Shown: in pieces, positions 5,027 to 53,878 of the stretch
How the letters are laid out: every line of letters begins with the position of its first letter
Position numbering within the stretch: the stretch's first letter is position 1
From: an uncultured Gemmatimonadales bacterium
GTDB taxonomy: Bacteria > Gemmatimonadota > Gemmatimonadetes > Gemmatimonadales > Gemmatimonadaceae
DNA: 64,000 nt
NCBI GenBank assembly: GCA_963701965.1
Contig: OY969695.1
Coordinates: 2,432,001-2,496,000, forward strand
Direction: 5' to 3'
The notes under the pieces: model-generated
Told to the model about the DNA's origin: nothing
Database searches by the model: none
What the model saw: only the letters and a program-made list of their open reading frames with translations
Translations under genes and position numbers: made by a program

Positions 5027-6435
5027 CCGCGGGGCTCAAACGCACGATGAACATGCGCGACCTGGTGTTGTTCAACCTCGTCGCCGTCATCGGATTGCGT
5101 TGGCTGAACACGGCGGCCAAGTCCGGGCCCTCGTCCATCGTCCTCTGGCTGCTGGCGGCGGTGATGTTCTTCATCCCGCAGGGCCTTGCCGTCGGCGAGC
5201 TCTCGGCGCGCTACCCGAAAGAAGGCGGCATCTACTTCTGGACCCGCCGCCGGTTCGGCGAGGGGCACGGGTTCTTCTGCGGCTGGTGCTATTGGGTAGT
5301 GAACGTCCTCTACTACCCACAGCTCCTGCTCTCGGGCGCCGTCATCGTGCTGTTCGTGTTCGGCAAAGGCGACTCGGGACTCGCCGAGAGCTGGCCCTAC
5401 GTGCTGACCGCCTGCACGCTGATGCTGTGGTTTGCCGTGGCGCTCAACGTGGTGGGGCTGGGCACCGGGAAGTGGCTGCAAAACCTCGGCGGCATCGGGA
5501 CGTACGGGGCGGGCGTGATCGTGCTGCTCGTCGGCATCTATGCGATGTTCACCCATCCGAGCGCCAATCCGATCACGGCGCGCGCCCTCGTGCCCAATTT
5601 CGGCTCGTTCACCGAGGTGAATCTCTGGGCCACGATCGCGTTCGCGTTCGCCGGCCTCGAGCTCGCGGCGACCCTGGGCGACGAGATCCAGGACGCCGGG
5701 CACGCGTTGCCGCGCTCCACGTACATCTCGGCGCCCTTGATCGCGGGGATCTACGTCCTGGGCACGGTGTGCGTGTTGTGGCTCGTGCCCGTCGATTCCC
5801 TCAAGCTGACGTCGGGATTTCTGCAAGCGATCGAGATCGGCGCGCAGCGCCTGTGGTGGCTGGCGCCGCTGGCCGCCGCGGCGTACACCGTCGGCAACAT
5901 CGGGGGCGCCGGTGCCTGGCTCGCCGGGCCCGCGCGCGTGGCGTTCATGATCGGCCTCGACCGGTATCTCCCTCGGGCCTTCGGGCGCATCCATCCCCAA
6001 TGGGGCACGCCGTACGTCGCCATCATCGTGCAAGCGGCCATCGCCACGCTCGTGCTGCCGCTGGCAGCCATGAGTAACGGGGCGTCGGGACATGGCACGA
6101 CGGTCGAGCAGGTGTACCTCGACATTCTCGACGCACAGCTCCTCATCTACTTCGTCCCGTTCATCTATCTGTTCTGCTGTCTCTTGCTGGAGCGCGACAC
6201 CGATCGCGCCGGCATGGCGAAATCCGTGATCCCCGGCGGCACGTTCGGCCGCGTCCTCACCGCCACGTCGGGCCTCTTCGTCACTGTATTCGCCATGGTC
6301 GTCGCCGCGATCCCCCCGTCGGACCAGGACCCCTTACTCTTCGAGCTCAAGGTCGTCGGCGGGGCGATGGTGTTTTATCTCGTCGGATACGGCTTCTACT
6401 GGCACGGCGCCCGGACCCGGGTCCCATTATCATGA
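5023..6435 (+). CDS. APC family amino acid/polyamine permease
   Basis: About 12 hydrophobic segments, EGGIYFW, FAFAGLE, HPQWGTPY; ATGA overlaps on both sides. Confidence 0.88.
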   Translation: MTAGLKRTMNMRDLVLFNLVAVIGLRWLNTAAKSGPSSIVLWLLAAVMFFIPQGLAVGELSARYPKEGGIYFWTRRRFGEGHGFFCGWCYWVVNVLYYPQLLLSGAVIVLFVFGKGDSGLAESWPYVLTACTLMLWFAVALNVVGLGTGKWLQNLGGIGTYGAGVIVLLVGIYAMFTHPSANPITARALVPNFGSFTEVNLWATIAFAFAGLELAATLGDEIQDAGHALPRSTYISAPLIAGIYVLGTVCVLWLVPVDSLKLTSGFLQAIEIGAQRLWWLAPLAAAAYTVGNIGGAGAWLAGPARVAFMIGLDRYLPRAFGRIHPQWGTPYVAIIVQAAIATLVLPLAAMSNGASGHGTTVEQVYLDILDAQLLIYFVPFIYLFCCLLLERDTDRAGMAKSVIPGGTFGRVLTATSGLFVTVFAMVVAAIPPSDQDPLLFELKVVGGAMVFYLVGYGFYWHGARTRVPLS

Positions 6436-9011
6436 AACGCTGGTCGCTCCTGGCCCTCTGCCTCGCGGCACCGGTGAGCGCGCAGCGCGAGCCCGTGCTC
6501 GAGCAGATCGTGCTGCCGCACGCGTACTACTATCGCGAGATGTACCTCCCCCAGGTGACGAGCGGACCGAGCACGGTCACGTGGTCGCCCGATGGGCAGA
6601 GCGTGATCTACTCGATGCAGGGCTCGCTCTGGCGTCAGCGCCTGGGCACAACGGAAGCCGAGCAGCTGACGGCGGGTCCCGGGTACGACTTTCAGCCGGA
6701 CTGGTCGCCCGACGGCCGGTCGGTGGTCTACGTGTCCTATCGCGGCGACGCCGAGGAGCTGCGGTTGCTGGACCTGGCGAGCGGCGACGATCATCCGCTC
6801 ACGGTCAACGGCGCCGTCAACGTCGACCCGCGCTGGTCGCCCGACGGATCGCGCCTGGCGTTCGTGTCCACGGTCTATCAGGGCCGCTTTCACATCTACG
6901 TCGCGACCATCAAGACAGGACAGCTCGACGCCGTTCGCCGCGTCACCGAGGACCACGACAGTCATCTGCCGCGCTACTACTACTCGGTATTCGACCACTA
7001 CCTCTCACCGACGTGGTCGCCGGACGGCGCCGAGCTCCTGTTCGTCTCCAACCGCGGGCACGTGTGGGGCACGGGTGGTCTGTGGCGGGCGCCGGCCGAC
7101 AGCGGCCCGGCCGACCGCGCACGGCAGATCCCGGCGCAGCCGGGATCAGTCCAACCGACTTCGGATCTCGCGACGCGAAGCGTCGAGATCCGGAACGAAG
7201 AGACGGCCTGGAAGCCGCATCCCGACTGGTCGCGCGACGGGCATCGCGTAGTCTATAGCTCGTTCGCCGGCCGGCAGTGGAACCAGCTGTGGCTGACGAC
7301 GCCGAACGGCGACTTTCCCGTGCAGCTGACCTACGGCGACTTCGACGCCACGGTGCCCCGGTGGTCGCCGGACGGCGGCCGGATTGCGTTCATCGCCAAC
7401 GAGGGTGGCAACACATCGCTGCGCATCGTCGCCGTCCCGGGTGGTGCGGTCTCCATCGTCACGGCCAAGCAACGCCATTACAAGGGAGCGGTCGGCGTGC
7501 TCCGCGTCATGGTGCGCGATGCGACCGGCCATCCGATGCCTGGCCGCGTCTCGGTCTCGGGCCGTGGCGATCGCACCTACGCCCCGGACGACGCCTGGCG
7601 TTACGCCGACGACTCGTTCGACCGCAAAACGCGGCGCCTGGAGATCGGATACTTCCAGACCACCGGCGCGTCGGTGCTCACCGTTCCCGCCGAGAGCGTC
7701 ACCGTCGATGTGTCGCGCGGCCTCGAGTATCGTCCGGCGCATCGCCGCGTCGCCATCAAGCCCGGCGACACGACGACCGTGGTCGTGGGGCTCCCCCGTA
7801 TGGCCAACCTCCCGCCGGAGGGTTGGTACAGCGGCGACCTTCACGTGCACATGAACTACGGGGGCACGTATCGGAACACGACCGCGCATCTCGCCGAGCA
7901 GGCGCGCGCCGAGGACGTGCACGTCATCGAAGACTTGATCGTGAACAAGGAGGGGCGCATCCCCGACGTGGGGTCGTTCATTCCCGGCGGGCGCGCCGAT
8001 CCGGCGAGCGACGCCAACACGCTCATCGTCCACGGCCAGGAATTTCACACCAGCTACTGGGGCCACGCCGGCCTGTTGGGTCTTCGGTCGTCGCTGATCC
8101 TGCCCGGCTACGCCGCGTACGCGTCGACCCCGGTCGCGAGCCTCGTGCCCACCAACGCCGACGTCGCGGGCATGGCCCACGCCGACCGCGCGCTGCTTGG
8201 CTACGTGCACCCGTTCGACGTCTACCCCGATCCCGCGGATATGGGCACGGCGCTGACCGATGAGCTACCCGTCGATGTCGCTTTGGGCGCCGTAGACTAT
8301 ATGGAGATCGTCGGGTTCAGCGATCATTTGTCGACCGCCCGCGTATGGTATCAGCTGTTGAATTGCGGGTTTCGTCTCCCCGCGGGCGCGGGCACCGACG
8401 CGATGGCCAACTACGCGTCGCTCCGCGGGCCGGTCGGTCTCAACCGCGTCTTCGTCCACGCCGGCTCGGCTCTCTGGCACGGCGCCTGGCTCGACTCGCT
8501 CAAGGCCGGCCGCTCCTTCGCCACGAACGGCCCGCTCCTCACCCTCACGATCGACGGACACGCGATCGGCGATGAGATCAAGGTCGCCGGCCCGACGACG
8601 CTGCACATCCATGCGACGCTGGCATCGATCGTGAGCGTCGACCATTTCGAGCTCGTGGGCCCGAGCGGTGTCGTGGCCAGCGTGGCGCTGACGGGCGACC
8701 GCACGACGGCGACCGCGGACTGGACGGTGACCGACTCGACCAGCGCCTGGTATACGGTGCGCGCGTACGCCGATCACGCGGCCGATCCGGCGTATCCGAT
8801 CCTGGACACCTACCCGTTCGCGACGACGAGTCCCATCTACGTGACCGTCGCCAACCGGCCAATGCGCTCGCCGCGCGATGCCCAGTATTTCGCCGCCTGG
8901 ATCGCGCGGCTCGCGGCCGGCGCGCGGAACTACACCGGGTACAACACGCCTGCCGAGCGGGCGCATGTGCTGGCCCAACTCGACTCGGCCGCTGCCGTCT
9001 TTGGTCATTGA
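6432..9011 (+). CDS. Secreted TolB/PD40 beta-propeller + PHP-like (CehA/McbA-type) metallohydrolase
   Basis: Signal peptide, repeated WSPDG motifs, SGDLHVH, GQEFHT..GH, YVHP, GAGTD, SFATNGP. Confidence 0.8.
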   Translation: MKRWSLLALCLAAPVSAQREPVLEQIVLPHAYYYREMYLPQVTSGPSTVTWSPDGQSVIYSMQGSLWRQRLGTTEAEQLTAGPGYDFQPDWSPDGRSVVYVSYRGDAEELRLLDLASGDDHPLTVNGAVNVDPRWSPDGSRLAFVSTVYQGRFHIYVATIKTGQLDAVRRVTEDHDSHLPRYYYSVFDHYLSPTWSPDGAELLFVSNRGHVWGTGGLWRAPADSGPADRARQIPAQPGSVQPTSDLATRSVEIRNEETAWKPHPDWSRDGHRVVYSSFAGRQWNQLWLTTPNGDFPVQLTYGDFDATVPRWSPDGGRIAFIANEGGNTSLRIVAVPGGAVSIVTAKQRHYKGAVGVLRVMVRDATGHPMPGRVSVSGRGDRTYAPDDAWRYADDSFDRKTRRLEIGYFQTTGASVLTVPAESVTVDVSRGLEYRPAHRRVAIKPGDTTTVVVGLPRMANLPPEGWYSGDLHVHMNYGGTYRNTTAHLAEQARAEDVHVIEDLIVNKEGRIPDVGSFIPGGRADPASDANTLIVHGQEFHTSYWGHAGLLGLRSSLILPGYAAYASTPVASLVPTNADVAGMAHADRALLGYVHPFDVYPDPADMGTALTDELPVDVALGAVDYMEIVGFSDHLSTARVWYQLLNCGFRLPAGAGTDAMANYASLRGPVGLNRVFVHAGSALWHGAWLDSLKAGRSFATNGPLLTLTIDGHAIGDEIKVAGPTTLHIHATLASIVSVDHFELVGPSGVVASVALTGDRTTATADWTVTDSTSAWYTVRAYADHAADPAYPILDTYPFATTSPIYVTVANRPMRSPRDAQYFAAWIARLAAGARNYTGYNTPAERAHVLAQLDSAAAVFGH
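7126..7191 (+). repeat. Hairpin-linker-hairpin element, in-frame intragenic copy
   Basis: GATCCCGGC-GCA-GCCGGGATC, then AGTCCAACCGACT, then GGATCT(CG)CGACGC-GAA-GCGTCGAGATCC; 44/47 nt identical to the copies at 46528 and 46597. Confidence 0.9.
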
Positions 9012-43589: not shown

Positions 43590-46500
43590 ATGGCTCGCCG
43601 AACCAATGCGCTGACGCCGTTTCATCCGCTCGTCCAGCGCTGGTTCCGGGACACGCTCGGGAGCCCGAGCGCGCCGCAAGAGCGCGGCTGGCCCGCCATC
43701 GCGTTGGGCGAGCATACGCTGATTCTGGCGCCGACGGGCACCGGCAAGACGCTGGCGGCGTTTTTGTGGGAACTGAACGCGCTGATCGTCCGCGGGGCCG
43801 AGTCGCCCCTGCCGAACGCGGTCCAGATCCTCTACATCTCGCCCCTCAAGGCACTGGGCAATGATGTGCAGCGGAACCTCGACCGCCCGCTGGCCGACCT
43901 GCGCGCGCGATTCGCCGCGGCCGGCGAGACGTTTCCCGAGATCCGCGTCAATGTCCGGACGGGCGACACGTCGCCCTCGGCCCGCGCGCGGATGCTCCGG
44001 CGCACCCCGCACATTCTGATCACGACGCCCGAGTCCCTGCACATCTTGCTCACCACCGAGCGCGGCCGCACGATCTTCCCCGGCGTGCGCGCCGTCATCG
44101 TCGACGAGATTCACGCGGTCGCCGGCGGCAAGCGCGGCGCGCACCTCGCGCTCACGCTCGAGCGCCTCGATGCGCTGTGCCTCGGCGCCGGCTACAATGC
44201 GCCACAGCGGATCGGCCTCTCCGCCACGCAACGACCGCTCAATGAAGTCGCGCGCTTTCTCGGCGGCGCCGGCGATGACGGACGCTTTCGACCGGTCACC
44301 GTCGTGGACTGCGGACTCGTCAAGAAAATGGAGTTCACCGTGCAGTCGCCGGTGCCCGATCTCGGCGACGTCGGTGGGACGGTCTGGCCCGCCGTCACGG
44401 AGTTGCTCCTGGCGCGCATCCGCGAGGCCCGCACCACGCTCGTGTTCGTGAACAACCGCGGGCAGGCCGAGCGAGTGGCCGTGCGCATCAATGCGCTGGC
44501 CAACGAGGAGCCGGGCTCCGAGCTCGCCAGACCGTATCACGGGTCGCTGTCCAAAGAGCGACGCCTCGCGCTGGAGCGCGCGCTCAAGGCCGGCGAGCTC
44601 CGGGCGCTGGTCACCACCAGCGCGCTGGAGCTGGGCATCGACATCGGCTCCGTCGATCTCGTCGTCCAGATCCAAAGCCCCAAACGCGTCGCCGCCGCCG
44701 TGCAGCGCGCGGGCCGCGCCGGCCACTCGGTGGGCGACGTCAGTCGCGCGGTCTTCGTGCCGACGTTTCGCGATGACCTCATCGAGACGCTCGCCATCGT
44801 CGACGCGGCCCGGGAAGGCGACGTCGAGGCCACCGTCGTCCCGCAGAACGCGCTCGACGTGCTGGCGCAGGTCATCGTGGCCGTCACCTCCACGCCGATC
44901 GAGGGCACGACCGACGAAGCGCTGTATCAGCTCGTGCGCCGCGCCTACCCGTATCATCGCTTGCCCCGGGCGGCGTTCGATGAGACCCTCGCCATGCTCA
45001 GCGGCAAGTATCCGTCCGACGTGGCCGCCGAGCTGGAGCCGCGGCTCACGTGGGATCGCATCACCGGACGCGTCACGGGGTCGCGCGGCAGCCGCATGAC
45101 CGCGGTCATCTCCGGTGGCACCATCCCGGACCGGGGTCTCTATACTGTCAACCTTCCAGACCGCACGCGGCTCGGAGAGCTCGACGAGGAGTTCGTGCAC
45201 GAGTCGCGCGTCGGCGACGTGTTCCAACTCGGCTCCGCGACCTGGCGCATCGGGTCGATCGAGCACGATCGCGTCATCGTGACGCCGGCACCCGGCGCGC
45301 CGGCGCGGATGCCGTTCTGGCACGGCGAGTTCTCGACGCGCGGCGTCGCGGTCAGCCAGCGCGTCGGCGCGTTGCGCCGGGCGTTGACGGTGGCCGCGGA
45401 GACCGACGACGCCGCCTTCGCCGCCGCCAACGGCTGCGACGAGGCGTGCGCCCGCTCGGCGCGCGAATACATCGCGGCGCAACGCGCCGCGACCGGCATC
45501 GTCCCGGACGATCGCACGTTGGTGGTCGAGTGGTTCCGCGACGAAGTGGATTCGGTCCGCGTGGTGATCCATGCCAGCGTCGGCGGGCGCGTGACCGCGC
45601 CCTGGGGCATGGCATTGGCCCGGCGCGCGCGCGACCTCCTCGGCGTCAATGTCGCGGTGCAAACCAACGACGACGGCATCATGCTGCGCCTGCCGCCGCT
45701 CAACGGGCCGCCGCCCATCCGCGCGTTGCTGGCGCAGACGCCGGACGAGGTGGAGCGGGCCGTGCTCGACGAGGTGGGAACGACTCCGTTGTTCGGGGCG
45801 CGGTTCCGGATGAACGCGGCGCGCGCCCTCCTGCTGCCGCGGGGCACGGCGCGGCGGCGCATGCCCCTCTGGCTCCAACGACTCAAAGCCACCGATCTCC
45901 TGCAGGCCGTGCGGGCCTACCCCGAGTTTCCCATCCTCGTGGAGACCTATCGCGAAGTCCTGCGCAATGCGTTCGACATGGACGCGTTGACCGCTGTCGT
46001 CCGGGCGGTCGACGGCGGGCAGCTCGGGCTCCGCATCGTGGAGACGGACCGGCCGTCGCCCTTTGCGTCCGGGCTCTTGCTCGGCTTCGTGATGGACTGG
46101 TTGTACGCCGACGACACGCCGCGCGCCGAGCGGGCCGCGGCGCTGTTGGCCGTCGACCGGGGCATGCTCGACGACGTCATGGGAGTCGACGACACCGTCG
46201 ACGAGGCGACCATGCGGGCCATCGACAATGTGCTCGCCATGCGCCGGGGGACCGCGACCGGGCGGCAGGCGCGTACCGCGGACGAGTTGGCGCATCGGCT
46301 GGAGCGGGCCGGAGATCTGACGCGGGACGAGTTGGTCGCCCGGGAAGCGCCGGACTCGGGCGCACTGCGCGCGCTCCTCGCCTCGAGCCGCGTCGTCGTT
46401 GCCCGCGTCGGCGGGGACGGTAGCGACGGGAGCGCGGACGCCGAGCGGTATATCCTTGCCGAGTATCGCCCGCAATACGATACGGCGAGCGGCGGCGAAG

Positions 46501-48170
46501 GCGCGTCGATGCGCGCAGCGCGGCGAGAGATCCCGGCGCAGCCGGGATCAGTTCAACCGACTCTGGATCTCGCGTCGACGCGCGCAGCGCGACGAGAGAT
46601 CCCGGCGCAGCCGGGATCAGTTCAACCGACTCTGGATCTCGCGTCGACGCGCGCAGCGCGACGCGAGATTTTTGCTCGCTATCTCGCGCTCTCCGGCCCG
46701 GTGACGGTCAATGACGTAGCGGCACGCTATCCGTATCCGCGTCAGTGGATCGCCGCGCGCCTCGCCGAGTGGGAGCGCGCCGGCACGCTGGTGCGGGGCC
46801 GATTTCGGCCGGGCGTCGTCGAGCCGCAGTGGTGCTCCCGCCGCGTGGTGGACCGCGCGCGGCGGCGGGCGCTGGCGGCGCTCCGGGCCGAGATCGAAGC
46901 CACCGACCTCGCGACCTTCGCTGCGTTTCTCCAACGCTGGCAGCACATCGATCCCCGCGACCACCTCGATGGCGAGGCCGGCCTGGCGACGCTGCTGGAG
47001 CAGCTCGACGGTCTGGCCCGACCGGCCGCCGGCTGGGAGCGCGACTATCTCCCCTCCCGCCTCGCGCACTACGACCCCGCGTGGCTGGCGCGCCTCATGA
47101 GCGCGGGCACGCTCGTATGGGCCGGCGCGAACTTGGGCCGGATCCGGTTTTTCGAGCGCGGCGAAGGGGACCTCTGGTCCCGCGCCGTCGACGCGCCGCT
47201 ATCCGAGACCGCCGTCCAAGTGCGCGACACCCTCGCCCGCCTGGGCGCATCGTTCCTCGCCGATCTCGCGACAGAGACTGGCAAGACCCCCCTCAACGTC
47301 AAAGACGCGCTGCGGGAGCTGGTGGCGGCCGGCATCGCGACCAACGACACCGCCGAGGCCATGCGCGAGATCGTGCGGATGCCCGCGCTGCCGGGGCGCG
47401 CGCGGCGCGACGAGCCCGATCCCACGCGCTGGCTCCCCGCCGGCTTCACGCCGCGGCCCGTCGTGCAGCGTCGGGTCAGCGCCCGCCGGCTTCCCCGGTG
47501 GCAGCGCCCCGACCGTCCCGGCCGCGCCGCGGCCTCGGGTTGGATCGGCCGGTGGTCGTTGCTCGACACGCCCGGCACCCGCGGTCCCGCCCTCGACGAG
47601 GAGACCCGCGCGGCCGCGATCGCCGAGCGGTGGCTGGCGCGCTATGGCATCGTGACCCGCGACTGGTGGCGCCGCGAACGGCCTCCCGTGTCGTGGCGCG
47701 CGATCTATCGCGAGCTCCGGCGTCTCGAGCTCCGGGGCGAAGTCCGGCGCGGGTATTTCGTCACCGGCCTGGCCGGAGCGCAGTTCGCCGCGCCCGAGGC
47801 GGTCGAGCGGCTGCGCGCGGCCCGCGACGATCCCAATGCGCCGTTCGTGCTCATGGCCGCGAGCGACCCGGCCCATCCCGATGTCCTCCCGCGTCCCCGC
47901 GGCGCCAGCGCGCTCATCGTGACGCGGCGCGGGATCACGGTCATGACGGTCGAAGGCGCGGGACGGCGCGTGACCATCATGGCGCCGCTGACGGAGCCCG
48001 AAGTCGCCGGGATCGCCGCGCAGTTGGCGGCCCGACACCCGGGGCGGTCGGCGACGCGCGAGCTCGAGACCATCGACGGGCGCCCTGCGGCGACGAGTGC
48101 GCACGCGCCGGGGTTTCTGCGCGCGGGATTCCGGAACGACGGTCTCGCGCTCGCCTACCCGGTCGGTTGA
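43590..48170 (+). CDS. lhr: Lhr DEAD/H-box helicase, long form with C-terminal winged-helix/glycosylase-like region
   Basis: APTGTGKT, SPLKAL, TTPESL, DEIH, GLSAT, LELGIDIG, QRAGRAGH, GELDEEFVHE, RRGYFV..GAQFA. Confidence 0.93.
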   Translation: MARRTNALTPFHPLVQRWFRDTLGSPSAPQERGWPAIALGEHTLILAPTGTGKTLAAFLWELNALIVRGAESPLPNAVQILYISPLKALGNDVQRNLDRPLADLRARFAAAGETFPEIRVNVRTGDTSPSARARMLRRTPHILITTPESLHILLTTERGRTIFPGVRAVIVDEIHAVAGGKRGAHLALTLERLDALCLGAGYNAPQRIGLSATQRPLNEVARFLGGAGDDGRFRPVTVVDCGLVKKMEFTVQSPVPDLGDVGGTVWPAVTELLLARIREARTTLVFVNNRGQAERVAVRINALANEEPGSELARPYHGSLSKERRLALERALKAGELRALVTTSALELGIDIGSVDLVVQIQSPKRVAAAVQRAGRAGHSVGDVSRAVFVPTFRDDLIETLAIVDAAREGDVEATVVPQNALDVLAQVIVAVTSTPIEGTTDEALYQLVRRAYPYHRLPRAAFDETLAMLSGKYPSDVAAELEPRLTWDRITGRVTGSRGSRMTAVISGGTIPDRGLYTVNLPDRTRLGELDEEFVHESRVGDVFQLGSATWRIGSIEHDRVIVTPAPGAPARMPFWHGEFSTRGVAVSQRVGALRRALTVAAETDDAAFAAANGCDEACARSAREYIAAQRAATGIVPDDRTLVVEWFRDEVDSVRVVIHASVGGRVTAPWGMALARRARDLLGVNVAVQTNDDGIMLRLPPLNGPPPIRALLAQTPDEVERAVLDEVGTTPLFGARFRMNAARALLLPRGTARRRMPLWLQRLKATDLLQAVRAYPEFPILVETYREVLRNAFDMDALTAVVRAVDGGQLGLRIVETDRPSPFASGLLLGFVMDWLYADDTPRAERAAALLAVDRGMLDDVMGVDDTVDEATMRAIDNVLAMRRGTATGRQARTADELAHRLERAGDLTRDELVAREAPDSGALRALLASSRVVVARVGGDGSDGSADAERYILAEYRPQYDTASGGEGASMRAARREIPAQPGSVQPTLDLASTRAARREIPAQPGSVQPTLDLASTRAARREIFARYLALSGPVTVNDVAARYPYPRQWIAARLAEWERAGTLVRGRFRPGVVEPQWCSRRVVDRARRRALAALRAEIEATDLATFAAFLQRWQHIDPRDHLDGEAGLATLLEQLDGLARPAAGWERDYLPSRLAHYDPAWLARLMSAGTLVWAGANLGRIRFFERGEGDLWSRAVDAPLSETAVQVRDTLARLGASFLADLATETGKTPLNVKDALRELVAAGIATNDTAEAMREIVRMPALPGRARRDEPDPTRWLPAGFTPRPVVQRRVSARRLPRWQRPDRPGRAAASGWIGRWSLLDTPGTRGPALDEETRAAAIAERWLARYGIVTRDWWRRERPPVSWRAIYRELRRLELRGEVRRGYFVTGLAGAQFAAPEAVERLRAARDDPNAPFVLMAASDPAHPDVLPRPRGASALIVTRRGITVMTVEGAGRRVTIMAPLTEPEVAGIAAQLAARHPGRSATRELETIDGRPAATSAHAPGFLRAGFRNDGLALAYPVG
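46503..46669 (+). repeat. 69-bp tandem repeat (2.4 copies) of the hairpin-linker-hairpin element inside lhr
   Basis: Units 46503-571 and 46572-640, partial unit 46641-669; each encodes ASxRAARREIPAQPGSVQPTLDL; 11-bp inverted repeat at 46636-46 / 46659-69. Confidence 0.95.
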
Positions 48171-52089: not shown

Positions 52090-53769
52090 TTACGGGTTCG
52101 GCGTCCGCGTCCGACGCAGCGAGTCCGCGGTGTCCCGCGGCGGGCGCACCGACACCGCGAGTCCCGGGTCCGGCTCGGAAGCCCGTGGAATCGGCGCCGC
52201 GCCAGGTTTCACGACGGCCGCCGTCATCGAATCGTGTTGCGGTTCGGCCGGCGGACGGCGGCGGCGGAGCTTGTGGTGCACCGGCGCCGCGGAGGCCACC
52301 GTCATGGTGTCGATCCGCGCCGGCGGCGGCGTCACCAGGGCAACGGACCGCGCGGTCCGCCCGCTCGGCGCCAGTGCCTCGATCGGCGGAGCCACGTATG
52401 GCGCCGCCGGATCCGGCGATGTCGCTGGCGGTGGGGCGGCGGGCGGTGACGCTTGCGGCGATGCCGGCGACGATGCCGCGGGCGGCGGGATGACCACCGG
52501 CGCCAGTCGCGCCGGCGTGGTCGGTGCGTTCGACCGGACCAGCTGCACCGTCAGCACGCTCGTCGCCAATGCGACGAACGCGCTGCAGATCACCGCGAGC
52601 CCCAGCAGACGCCGCCGATCCAACGCCGGACTGGGCACGCGGATGAACGTGTGCTGCGGGCGCGGCGGTACGGTCCGCGGCTCGCCCGGCGGTCCCGCCG
52701 TCGCCGGCTCGCTCCATCCGGCCGGCCGGCCTTTGACCCAGGCTTTGCGCCGCTCGATGCCGTCCCAGCGCCGCCGATCGCGCCCGCCGTATCCGTCGGC
52801 GCCACCCGTCGGCCCCGACACGCGCCGCACGGGCAAGCTCGGTCGAGGAAGCGGAACAGGACTCGACGGCCCCTCGCGCACGGCCGGCGCGCGGGACTCC
52901 GGCCGATACAGGGCGGCGAGCCCGGCGATCGGCGTCGCCAACGTGGGCACGCCTTTGGTCGCCGTACCGGTCCAGGGCTCCAACATGGCCGCGACGTCCA
53001 CCTGCACCCCGTGATCCAGCACTTCATGCACGGCCCGCTCGGGCTCCTGCGCCGCGATGGCCTCGCGCGCCGCCGCCCACGGCGCGCCAGGCACCGCGCC
53101 ACTGCACGCGCACCCGACGCGCGCCGCGAGATCAATGACGCACCAATGGCGCTTGGATACGTGATACGCGATTTCGGCGACGTAGTCGACGGACTCGGGT
53201 TCGGTCACGGCCTGCCCGCGCCCCTCGGCATAGACCCAATTCGGCGCCGGCACACCGCCCGGCAACGAGTAGAATCGGCGCCCATCGCGCGCGACCCGCT
53301 CGTCCATGGTCGTCGGTTGCTCGGTCGGTATGATGCCGCGCTTGGCGAGGCTCTTGAGCAGCGCCGCGGGCGAGGCGTACTTGTCGATGGCGGGATCCAC
53401 CGCGCCCGGACAGTCGCCGATGTACGTGACATGCAGCCCGTGCAGTCCCGCGCGGGCGCGGAGGTACCGCGCCGCGGCGACAGGCGGGGAGATGAACGGC
53501 AGGAGATTCGGCCGGAGGCTCCCGATCCGTCGCATCTTCTCGGCGACCCGGGGACAGGAGCACAGGATCAGCGCCTCGTCGCCGCGCGCCGCCAGCCGCT
53601 TGAGCGTCGCCTCGGCGATCAGCTCATCGCCCCAACTCGCCGGCACGGCCGCGGTGTAGCCCGCGGCCACGCACGCGTTGGCCAGCTGCACAGGCGTAGC
53701 CGGACGCGCCGCGAGAATCGCGTCCGCGCCGAGGATGACGACGGCCGGTGCTTGTTGCTGCTGGGACAA
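52090..53769 (-). CDS. Membrane protein with a degenerate [FeFe]-hydrogenase/Nar1-like Fe-S domain and Pro-rich tail
   Basis: ILCSCP, SPPVAAARY, YIGDCP, IDLAARVGCACSG; single TM (LLGLAVICSAFVALA) then Pro/Ala-rich region. Confidence 0.55.
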   Translation of the reverse strand: MSQQQQAPAVVILGADAILAARPATPVQLANACVAAGYTAAVPASWGDELIAEATLKRLAARGDEALILCSCPRVAEKMRRIGSLRPNLLPFISPPVAAARYLRARAGLHGLHVTYIGDCPGAVDPAIDKYASPAALLKSLAKRGIIPTEQPTTMDERVARDGRRFYSLPGGVPAPNWVYAEGRGQAVTEPESVDYVAEIAYHVSKRHWCVIDLAARVGCACSGAVPGAPWAAAREAIAAQEPERAVHEVLDHGVQVDVAAMLEPWTGTATKGVPTLATPIAGLAALYRPESRAPAVREGPSSPVPLPRPSLPVRRVSGPTGGADGYGGRDRRRWDGIERRKAWVKGRPAGWSEPATAGPPGEPRTVPPRPQHTFIRVPSPALDRRRLLGLAVICSAFVALATSVLTVQLVRSNAPTTPARLAPVVIPPPAASSPASPQASPPAAPPPATSPDPAAPYVAPPIEALAPSGRTARSVALVTPPPARIDTMTVASAAPVHHKLRRRRPPAEPQHDSMTAAVVKPGAAPIPRASEPDPGLAVSVRPPRDTADSLRRTRTPNP

Positions 53770-53808: not shown

Positions 53809-53878
53809 AGCTCTCGGCGCAGCCGAGAGCTGTCCAACCGACTGCCTCTCACGGGTGCGTCAGCACCCAATGAGAGGC
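53809..53878 (+). repeat. Hairpin-linker-hairpin element, intergenic copy
   Basis: AGCTCTCGGC-GCA-GCCGAGAGCT, then GTCCAACCGACT, then GCCTCTCA(C)GGGTGC-GTCA-GCACCC(AA)TGAGAGGC. Confidence 0.85.

Follow-up and report, generated by a model that had tools for sequence, protein, structure and literature searches.

In-frame colonisation of housekeeping genes through palindromic repeats is best known from Rickettsia, and tandem arrays that gain or lose units, each some tens of bases long, via slippage are familiar from the variable-number tandem repeat (VNTR) loci of the mycobacterial interspersed repetitive unit (MIRU) type. One account of the Rickettsia palindromic elements (RPEs) gives 44 integrations in genes of R. 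conorii, read as in-frame fusions, by elements of about 150 bp (PMC10969869), and the same account mentions occasional in-frame intragenic copies of bacterial MITEs (transposable elements of the miniature inverted-repeat type), among them Correia, ERIC, the Coxiella QMITE and the Anabaena MITEs (PMC10969869). Mini-hairpins of the form GCGNAGC are described, for DNA, as extraordinarily stable (PMC13037366, PMC3201870). Here we describe a tandem array inside the gene for the helicase Lhr of an uncultured Gemmatimonadales bacterium (assembly GCA_963701965.1), carried on a 64,000-nt stretch of contig OY969695.1 (positions 2,432,001 to 2,496,000, forward strand) that we call the window and whose numbering is used unless genome coordinates are named. 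The array is real, and it is one instance of a new, genus-restricted and RPE-like repeat family.

Tandem Repeats Finder places a period-69 array at 46502-46669 (2.4 copies, 96% matches, 0% indels) with a score of 315, the runner-up in the 64-kb window reaching 71. A repeat search resolves two 69-nt copies of 97% identity and a 30-nt segment that occurs three times at 69-nt spacing, and a 45-nt core is present exactly twice, with two or more matches in 0 of 100 shuffles. The open reading frame (ORF) that hosts the array runs from 43590 to 48170 (+) and encodes 1526 aa. The array is in frame; its two units add 138 nt, or 46 aa (Lhr residues 982-1027, which read PAQPGSVQPTLDLASTRAARREI twice), and with both units removed the product reads ...ASMRAARREI-FARYL. 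A sequence-only reading of this DNA had described a 69-bp unit repeated 2.4 times that adds 46 residues in frame, which Tandem Repeats Finder and the ORF translation bear out, and the collapse to ASMRAARREI-FARYL that it gave was reproduced. The gene and the parts of the array are as follows.

43590..48170, plus strand: Lhr helicase gene (ORF list, translation, Pfam, PDB 7LHL)
46502..46531, plus strand: N1, first 30-bp host copy (ASMRAARREI), joined to native upstream sequence (repeat search; RAARREI in 11 orthologues)
46532..46570, plus strand: C1, 39-bp core, with hairpin 1 at 46529-46549, linker AGTTCAACCGAC at 46550-46561, then TCTGGATCT
46571..46600, plus strand: N2, middle host-derived copy, its 5' part like N3 and its 3' part like N1
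46601..46639, plus strand: C2, second core, with hairpin 1 at 46598-46618 and linker at 46619-46630
46640..46669, plus strand: N3, third host-derived copy (ASTRAARREI), running on into FARYLAL (repeat search, AlphaFold)
46565..46602, plus strand: hairpin 2 of unit 1, made of N2 and the element's GGATCTC arm and topped by GCGCAGC (DNA fold)
46634..46674, plus strand: hairpin 2 of unit 2, a perfect stem followed by TTTTT, terminator-like in shape (DNA and RNA folds)

The layout is N1-C-N2-C-N3, three 30-bp host-derived segments (N) alternating with two 39-bp element cores (C), so that each 69-bp unit is a hybrid of 39 bp of element and 30 bp of conserved Lhr coding sequence (ASxRAARREI). The earlier description of the array as an amplified element therefore stands for the core, which is present in each unit, but not for the 30 of 69 bp that are host coding sequence. 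The core consists of hairpin 1, the linker and GGATCT. Units in Lhr are without the standard hairpin 2 of the family introduced below, and the element arm GGATCTC pairs with the end of the host-derived N. GAGATCC at 46527-46533 is complementary to GGATCTC at 46565-46571, and GAGATCC serves both as the end of hairpin 2 and as the start of hairpin 1; this shared motif, by which units chain head to tail, and its pairing with GGATCTC had been picked out beforehand, and both are present in the sequence. Folded as single-stranded DNA, each unit gives two hairpins (z = -5.9 and -6.1; 0 of 200 shuffles equal), and the 3' arm of N3, CGACGCGAGAT, is a perfect 11-nt complement to ATCTCGCGTCG. Two changes on the N3 side, C at 46664 and T at 46670, both strengthen the terminator shape of the last hairpin 2, which has an 11-bp outer stem.

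The differences among the copies record how the array may have grown. Position 9 of N is T in N1 and C in both N2 and N3; position 22 is G in N1 and A in the other two; position 25 is A in N1 and N2 and C in N3. The cores C1 and C2 are identical at 39 of 39 positions. When an ancestor N1-C-N3 is passed by script through one 69-bp tandem duplication, all 168 nt are reproduced exactly, and the breakpoint fits after N position 22, 23 or 24, N2 being equal to N3 before it and to N1 after it. Because that ancestor and a single duplication yield the observed 168 nt exactly, the two differences between the units would be inherited from N1 and N3, would need no later substitution and would not date the event. 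The sequence-only reading had taken the near-identity of the units as a mark of recent duplication; the identical cores do make it look recent, but the two differences say nothing about its age. Because the unit includes host sequence, the array is best read from its composition as the product of local duplication, and not of re-insertion of the element.

A 39-bp core sits in frame in the Lhr linker, and the array most likely arose in two steps, an insertion giving N1-C-N3 and then one 69-bp duplication. In the first step, the entering core would also have doubled 30 bp of the host's coding sequence. Its route was probably templated copying, that is, replication template switching at stable GCGNAGC mini-hairpins helped by GATC microhomology, the alternative being transposition in trans by an enzyme acting at a GAGATC site. 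The second step would be a single 69-bp tandem duplication through slipped-strand mispairing or unequal exchange between N copies. Only products that keep an intact RAARREIFARYL helix would have survived selection, and the resulting array would be a neutral or nearly neutral passenger rather than an adaptation.

The host protein is, from its domain content, an Lhr DNA-repair helicase with the Lhr-Core domains and the C-terminal winged-helix domain, because Pfam finds DEAD, Helicase_C, WH_Lhr, DEAD_assoc, WH3_Lhr and WH4_Lhr in the 1526-aa ORF; PDB entry 7LHL (M. smegmatis Lhr) matches the ORF protein with an E value of 3.6e-45. The C-terminal domain of the 7LHL structure is described as winged-helix modules WH2-WH6 together with a beta-barrel (PMC8053096). 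The 7LHL chain aligns to Lhr residues 832-935 and 1025-1431 and leaves the insert region unaligned. AlphaFold, run on Lhr residues 851-1200 with 10 orthologue rows, returned a mean predicted local distance difference test (pLDDT) of 69.9, with values below 50 at residues 979-1014 and of about 88-92 in a helix at 1017-1033 that is made of the third N copy and FARYLAL. This helix opens a three-helix, two-strand module that corresponds to the next winged-helix module. The linker at the insert point differs in length by 0-45 aa among Lhr orthologues. Given the low pLDDT at 979-1014 and this variable length, the insert is predicted to be a flexible loop that Lhr tolerates, in a linker between two winged-helix modules, and the duplication of N is predicted to leave the conserved helix intact. 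The insert had been proposed to lie in a linker ahead of the C-terminal winged-helix region, and the 7LHL alignment and the AlphaFold model agree in placing it between two winged-helix modules.

Eleven Lhr orthologues were aligned, five of the same genus and six of the same family (one of the six, G012, is unpublished, and no conclusion is drawn from it alone). The insert is absent from all five same-genus and all six alignable same-family genes, the outcome that the sequence-only reading had called for. The native RAARREI(L/F)ARYL is kept in all 11, and the native RAARREI is present three times in the array genome.

The Lhr core is a member of a dispersed family, recurring at 48 other loci of the genome (5.12 Mb, one contig, 67.1% GC). 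In a census by BLAST and nhmmer, the copy count rose over three nhmmer rounds from 57 to 63 and finally to 76, in 49 loci. The usual unit, of about 63 bp, consists of hairpin 1 (consensus GATCYCGGC-GNA-GCCGRGATC), a conserved unpaired linker RGTYCAACCGAY and a hairpin 2 whose common form is GGATCTC-GCGACGC-GNA-GCGTCGC-C-GAGATCC. Other subtypes have a different second hairpin, and CTAG boundaries in place of GATC. The apex motif GCGNAGC occurs as GCGCAGC in hairpin 1, as GCGGAGC or GCGAAGC in the standard hairpin 2 and as GCGCAGC in the host segment N. At 10 loci, copies follow one another head to tail every 62-71 nt; the arrays contain 8, 7, 4, 4, 4, 2, 2, 2, 2 and 2 of them. Among 68 distinct copies, each of the nine base pairs in hairpin 1 is intact in 91-100%, five of the nine show two-sided changes (e.g. 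T-A in 41 vs G-C in 20, or T-A in 37 vs C-G in 24), and the GNA loop is kept in 53; the family is, to judge from these alignments, conserved in structure and beyond sequence alone. A search of Rfam with 46300-46900 returned only two chance-level matches (16.7 and 14.8 bits vs a threshold of 168 bits), and no description of such a repeat family was found in the literature searched or in Rfam.

Distribution was scanned with a 25-nt family pattern, the reversed pattern serving as control. The array genome gave 50 matches, the five same-genus genomes 20, 3, 2, 2 and 1, and none came from 55 further members of the family and order; the reversed pattern gave 0. In 300 further genomes sampled from the phylum, four single matches to the family pattern vs three to the reversed control are at chance level. 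A scan of the contigs of all species gave, among the matches listed, mostly chance singletons. At least five of seven stem pairs were present in 17 of 130 checked matches (loci of the genus set included), and among the matches listed in the all-species contigs the convincing hairpins came from two loci of one uncultured Gemmatimonadales bacterium record. The pattern was found only in the genus among the genomes searched. Ten copies sampled from the relatives differ in their second hairpins, and 0 of the 10 qualify under the in-ORF test given below. On this evidence, the GATC-bounded 63-bp subtype seems to have expanded in the lineage of the array genome.

A locus was counted as lying in a coding frame if a frame free of stops ran across it and for 150 nt or more to either side, with a third-position GC of at least 0.78 that was also the best of three on both sides. 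Twelve of the 49 loci pass, 11 of them with the element in the coding-strand orientation and one in the opposite. The frame IPAQPGSVQPT is used at six in-ORF loci, Lhr included, and DPGAAGISPTD at five, while the Arg-rich third frame is used by none of the 12. Besides Lhr, the host genes encode pyruvate kinase (with the insert inside the barrel domain), an SNF2 helicase, VirD4/TraG (two units), a PD40 protein, a GATase (two units), an MBL-rhodanese protein, Ada-AlkA, a TMEM260-like protein, an alpha/beta hydrolase, a DUF4015 protein and the product of one unassigned ORF. Empty sites were sought for Lhr and five of these genes in same-genus orthologues alignable across the site, and the insert is missing from every one of them: five of five for pyruvate kinase, where exactly 21 aa are missing, five of five for VirD4, four of four for PD40 (one genome having no match), four of four for the GATase and two of two for Ada-AlkA. 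Every array inside an ORF has a period divisible by 3 (63, 63 and 69 nt); the periods of arrays without a spanning ORF or with a weak coding signal are 62, 65, 66 and 68 nt. The VirD4/TraG array (genome 2402373-2402496) consists of two units plus 15 bases of a third (GATCCCGGCGCAGCC), after which native sequence follows, and the VirD4 orthologues have GGGAE where the array genome has DPGAA. This array could be a second case of native sequence common to the unit.

Set beside the described systems, the family comes nearest to RPEs: as in the published account of those elements, dispersed palindromic repeats lie in frame in housekeeping genes unrelated to one another, each ORF staying open and gaining a peptide, and orthologues are empty. 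It differs in size (63 bp vs about 150 bp) and in host phylum (Gemmatimonadales vs Alphaproteobacteria), and, unlike RPEs, the Gemmatimonadales elements form head-to-tail arrays, use two frames and, in Lhr, take in host sequence. We claim for it an RPE-like behaviour, by analogy, and a likeness rather than membership. With repetitive extragenic palindromes (REP) and bacterial interspersed mosaic elements (BIME) it shares short GC-rich hairpins in many copies, clustered mosaic arrays and conserved structure; unlike those served by a REP-associated tyrosine transposase (RAYT), it comes from a genome in which no Y1 (RAYT) enzyme was found, has 12 of 49 loci within genes rather than in extragenic positions, and repeats its units directly and not in alternation. 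Small size, ends like terminal inverted repeats, apparent short flanking direct repeats and some in-frame intragenic copies recall the MITEs as that account portrays them, but no related autonomous insertion sequence was found in searches for DDE_Tnp_1 and DDE_3, and two self-complementary hairpins stand in place of one long terminal pairing. The Lhr array has tandem units of tens of bases, as MIRU-type VNTR loci do, but its unit combines host coding sequence with a dispersed element, lies inside a gene and is known here from one genome. GCGNAGC fits the apexes of hairpin 1, the standard hairpin 2 and host segment N; the mini-hairpin papers deal with oligonucleotides, whereas a role in repeat spread or slippage is what we infer here.

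RPE-like behaviour is thereby seen in a free-living soil lineage, the Gemmatimonadales, with a much shorter element and with one site at which each base of the history can be accounted for. Lhr illustrates how part of a host gene and a dispersed repeat can merge to give a novel tandem unit, each copy of which makes a linker 23 residues longer. With its strong hairpin covariation, its conserved single-stranded motif and the lack of an identifiable transposase, the family is a usable system for the study of repeat movement. For annotation, the elements explain odd species-specific insertions of 21 aa (63 bp) or 2 x 21 aa in conserved proteins, pyruvate kinase being an example.

How the core entered Lhr is the step on which readings diverge. 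We favour a templated copy event at stable hairpins, and would advance only tentatively the broader proposal that an undescribed, genus-restricted family of 63-bp, GATC-bounded double mini-hairpins spreads without a recognisable transposase, has colonised at least 12 genes in frame and captured 30 bp of Lhr as its second hairpin. If that is true, transposase-free spread would point to hairpin-driven, replication-templated copying (template switching at GCGNAGC) and not to transposition, and would mean that, outside Rickettsia, selfish DNA has a way of making protein linkers longer. A possible, if rather doubtful, alternative is that the core is a MITE moved in trans by a transposase, with insertion at GATC and a 4-bp target duplication, the 30-bp host duplication being a separate event in which, for instance, N1 overwrote a standard hairpin 2 through gene conversion. 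Its appeal lies in the ends: most units have GATC or CGAGATC beside them; GATC...GATC, 63 nt apart, bounds most full-length units; the element's 5' end GATCYCGGCG is the reverse complement of its 3' end GATCTCGGCG, a 10-nt inverted repeat; the pyruvate kinase insertion is exactly 63 bp with CGAGATC flanks; and species-specific insert sites suggest recent mobility. The same terminal bases, however, form parts of the two internal hairpins, a palindromic 4-bp repeat is indistinguishable from the element ends, and an extra event is needed for the Lhr units, which are without the standard hairpin 2. The partner enzyme was not found either: the Y1 (RAYT) transposase PF01797 has 0 matches in this 95%-complete genome (the control was positive in 6 of 14 genomes), DDE_Tnp_1 has one partial match far from any family copy, DDE_3 has none above the cut-off, and a related autonomous element with the same ends was not found among these three families. 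Nicking at GATC by MutH was considered and set aside, as MutH was not found in the genome. A D12-class (Dam-like) DNA methyltransferase gene lies at genome 2305209-2306018 (-), each standard unit has four GATC sites, and GAGATC is over-represented in the window (112 found vs 48 expected).

Several observations weigh against the two-step, template-switch history and the passenger status given above. Its first step, the entry of the core with the template switch, is one that we infer, and the neutrality of the insert in Lhr is a prediction. A choice of N1 by its homology or fold finds no support: 1402 of 63794 window positions score as well as N1 against the standard hairpin 2, several of them inside Lhr, and N1 alone folds with z = +0.9, 164 of 200 shuffles folding equally well. 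Since both the match and the fold are ordinary, a simple homology anchor is disfavoured, and homology-guided targeting of N1 was dropped. The GATC target is deduced from flanking repeats within the array genome alone, and the diverged empty sites of the sister species have no exact GATC. A 30-bp target duplication, the length found in Lhr, is atypical for transposases, which also tells against the MITE reading. The coding-strand bias of 11 in 12 has a probability of about 0.02 if three of five open frames are sense, and is modestly significant. The reads support a minimum of two cores, and the exact number of units comes from the assembly alone; that support consists of two short unitigs from one run, possibly the assembly's source sample. 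On the other side, an after-the-fact check gives weak support to targeting: GCGNAGC within 16 nt upstream occurs at only 96 of 7043 GAGATC sites outside element copies, and N1, its own copy N2 aside, is the only GAGATC site in Lhr with a near-upstream GCGNAGC.

Those reads also bear on whether the second unit is a tandem repeat mis-expanded in assembly. The source is an apparent metagenome-assembled single contig (completeness 94.96%, contamination 4.23%), and no read set spans the whole array. Short-read unitigs from a soil run nevertheless match 46473-46553 and 46532-46622 with zero differences. The second covers C-N2-C. As N2 matches neither N1 nor N3, the soil-run reads must contain two cores or more; with the array in frame and similar arrays at nine other loci, a mis-expansion is very unlikely. 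Among sequencing runs, the soil run is the only one to contain part of the stretch (share 0.13), two runs of the same study having next to no sampled words, and no RNA run came up as containing it; most of the stretch is uncovered in the soil-run contigs, and metagenome scans with the right junction and with the core-N junction gave 0 matches each. It is improbable, too, that the array has a function, whether in tuning the length of the linker that joins the helicase part to the C-terminal domain, which tetramerises, or in cutting the Lhr transcript short as a terminator or attenuator within the gene. The N3-specific A to C change at 46664 perfects the stem, the T at 46670 makes a run of five T, and the hairpin with U5 is terminator-like in shape; a simple terminator scan, though, does not call the hairpin 2 and T5 site, the relatives function without any insert, and the other family copies lie in unrelated genes, consistent with a passenger. 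Least plausible of all, and next to discounted here, is a native Lhr protein repeat rather than a DNA-level element: its RAARREI part is native and conserved, but the 39-bp core recurs at the 48 other loci, some without a spanning ORF, uses two different reading frames among its other host genes, and belongs to an insert that none of the 11 aligned orthologues has.

Two more family copies lie in the window.

7127..7185, plus strand: family copy, in frame, in the gene of a PD40/DPPIV_N protein (ORF 6078-9008)
53812..53852, plus strand: third family copy of the window, hairpin 1 and linker with a different second hairpin (CCTCTCA...TGAGAGG); genome 2485812-2485852, nhmmer E 1.5e-6

Over the genome as a whole, no overall replichore orientation bias was seen (13 plus and 9 minus on one side, 14 plus and 13 minus on the other). 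Within genome 2.26-3.45 Mb (1.19 Mb, 23% of the genome) lie 29 of the 49 family loci; this stretch lies around the point, near 2.71 Mb, where cumulative GC skew is lowest, and on the other side the skew is weak and irregular. The largest arrays are at genome 3407077-3407573 (8 units, period 62-64) and 2607086-2607525 (7 units, period 63), the latter just upstream of, or at the N-terminus of, an opposite-strand ABC ATPase ORF. A weaker tandem repeat of the window, at 52105-52172, has a period of 30, 2.3 copies, 71% matches and a score of 71.

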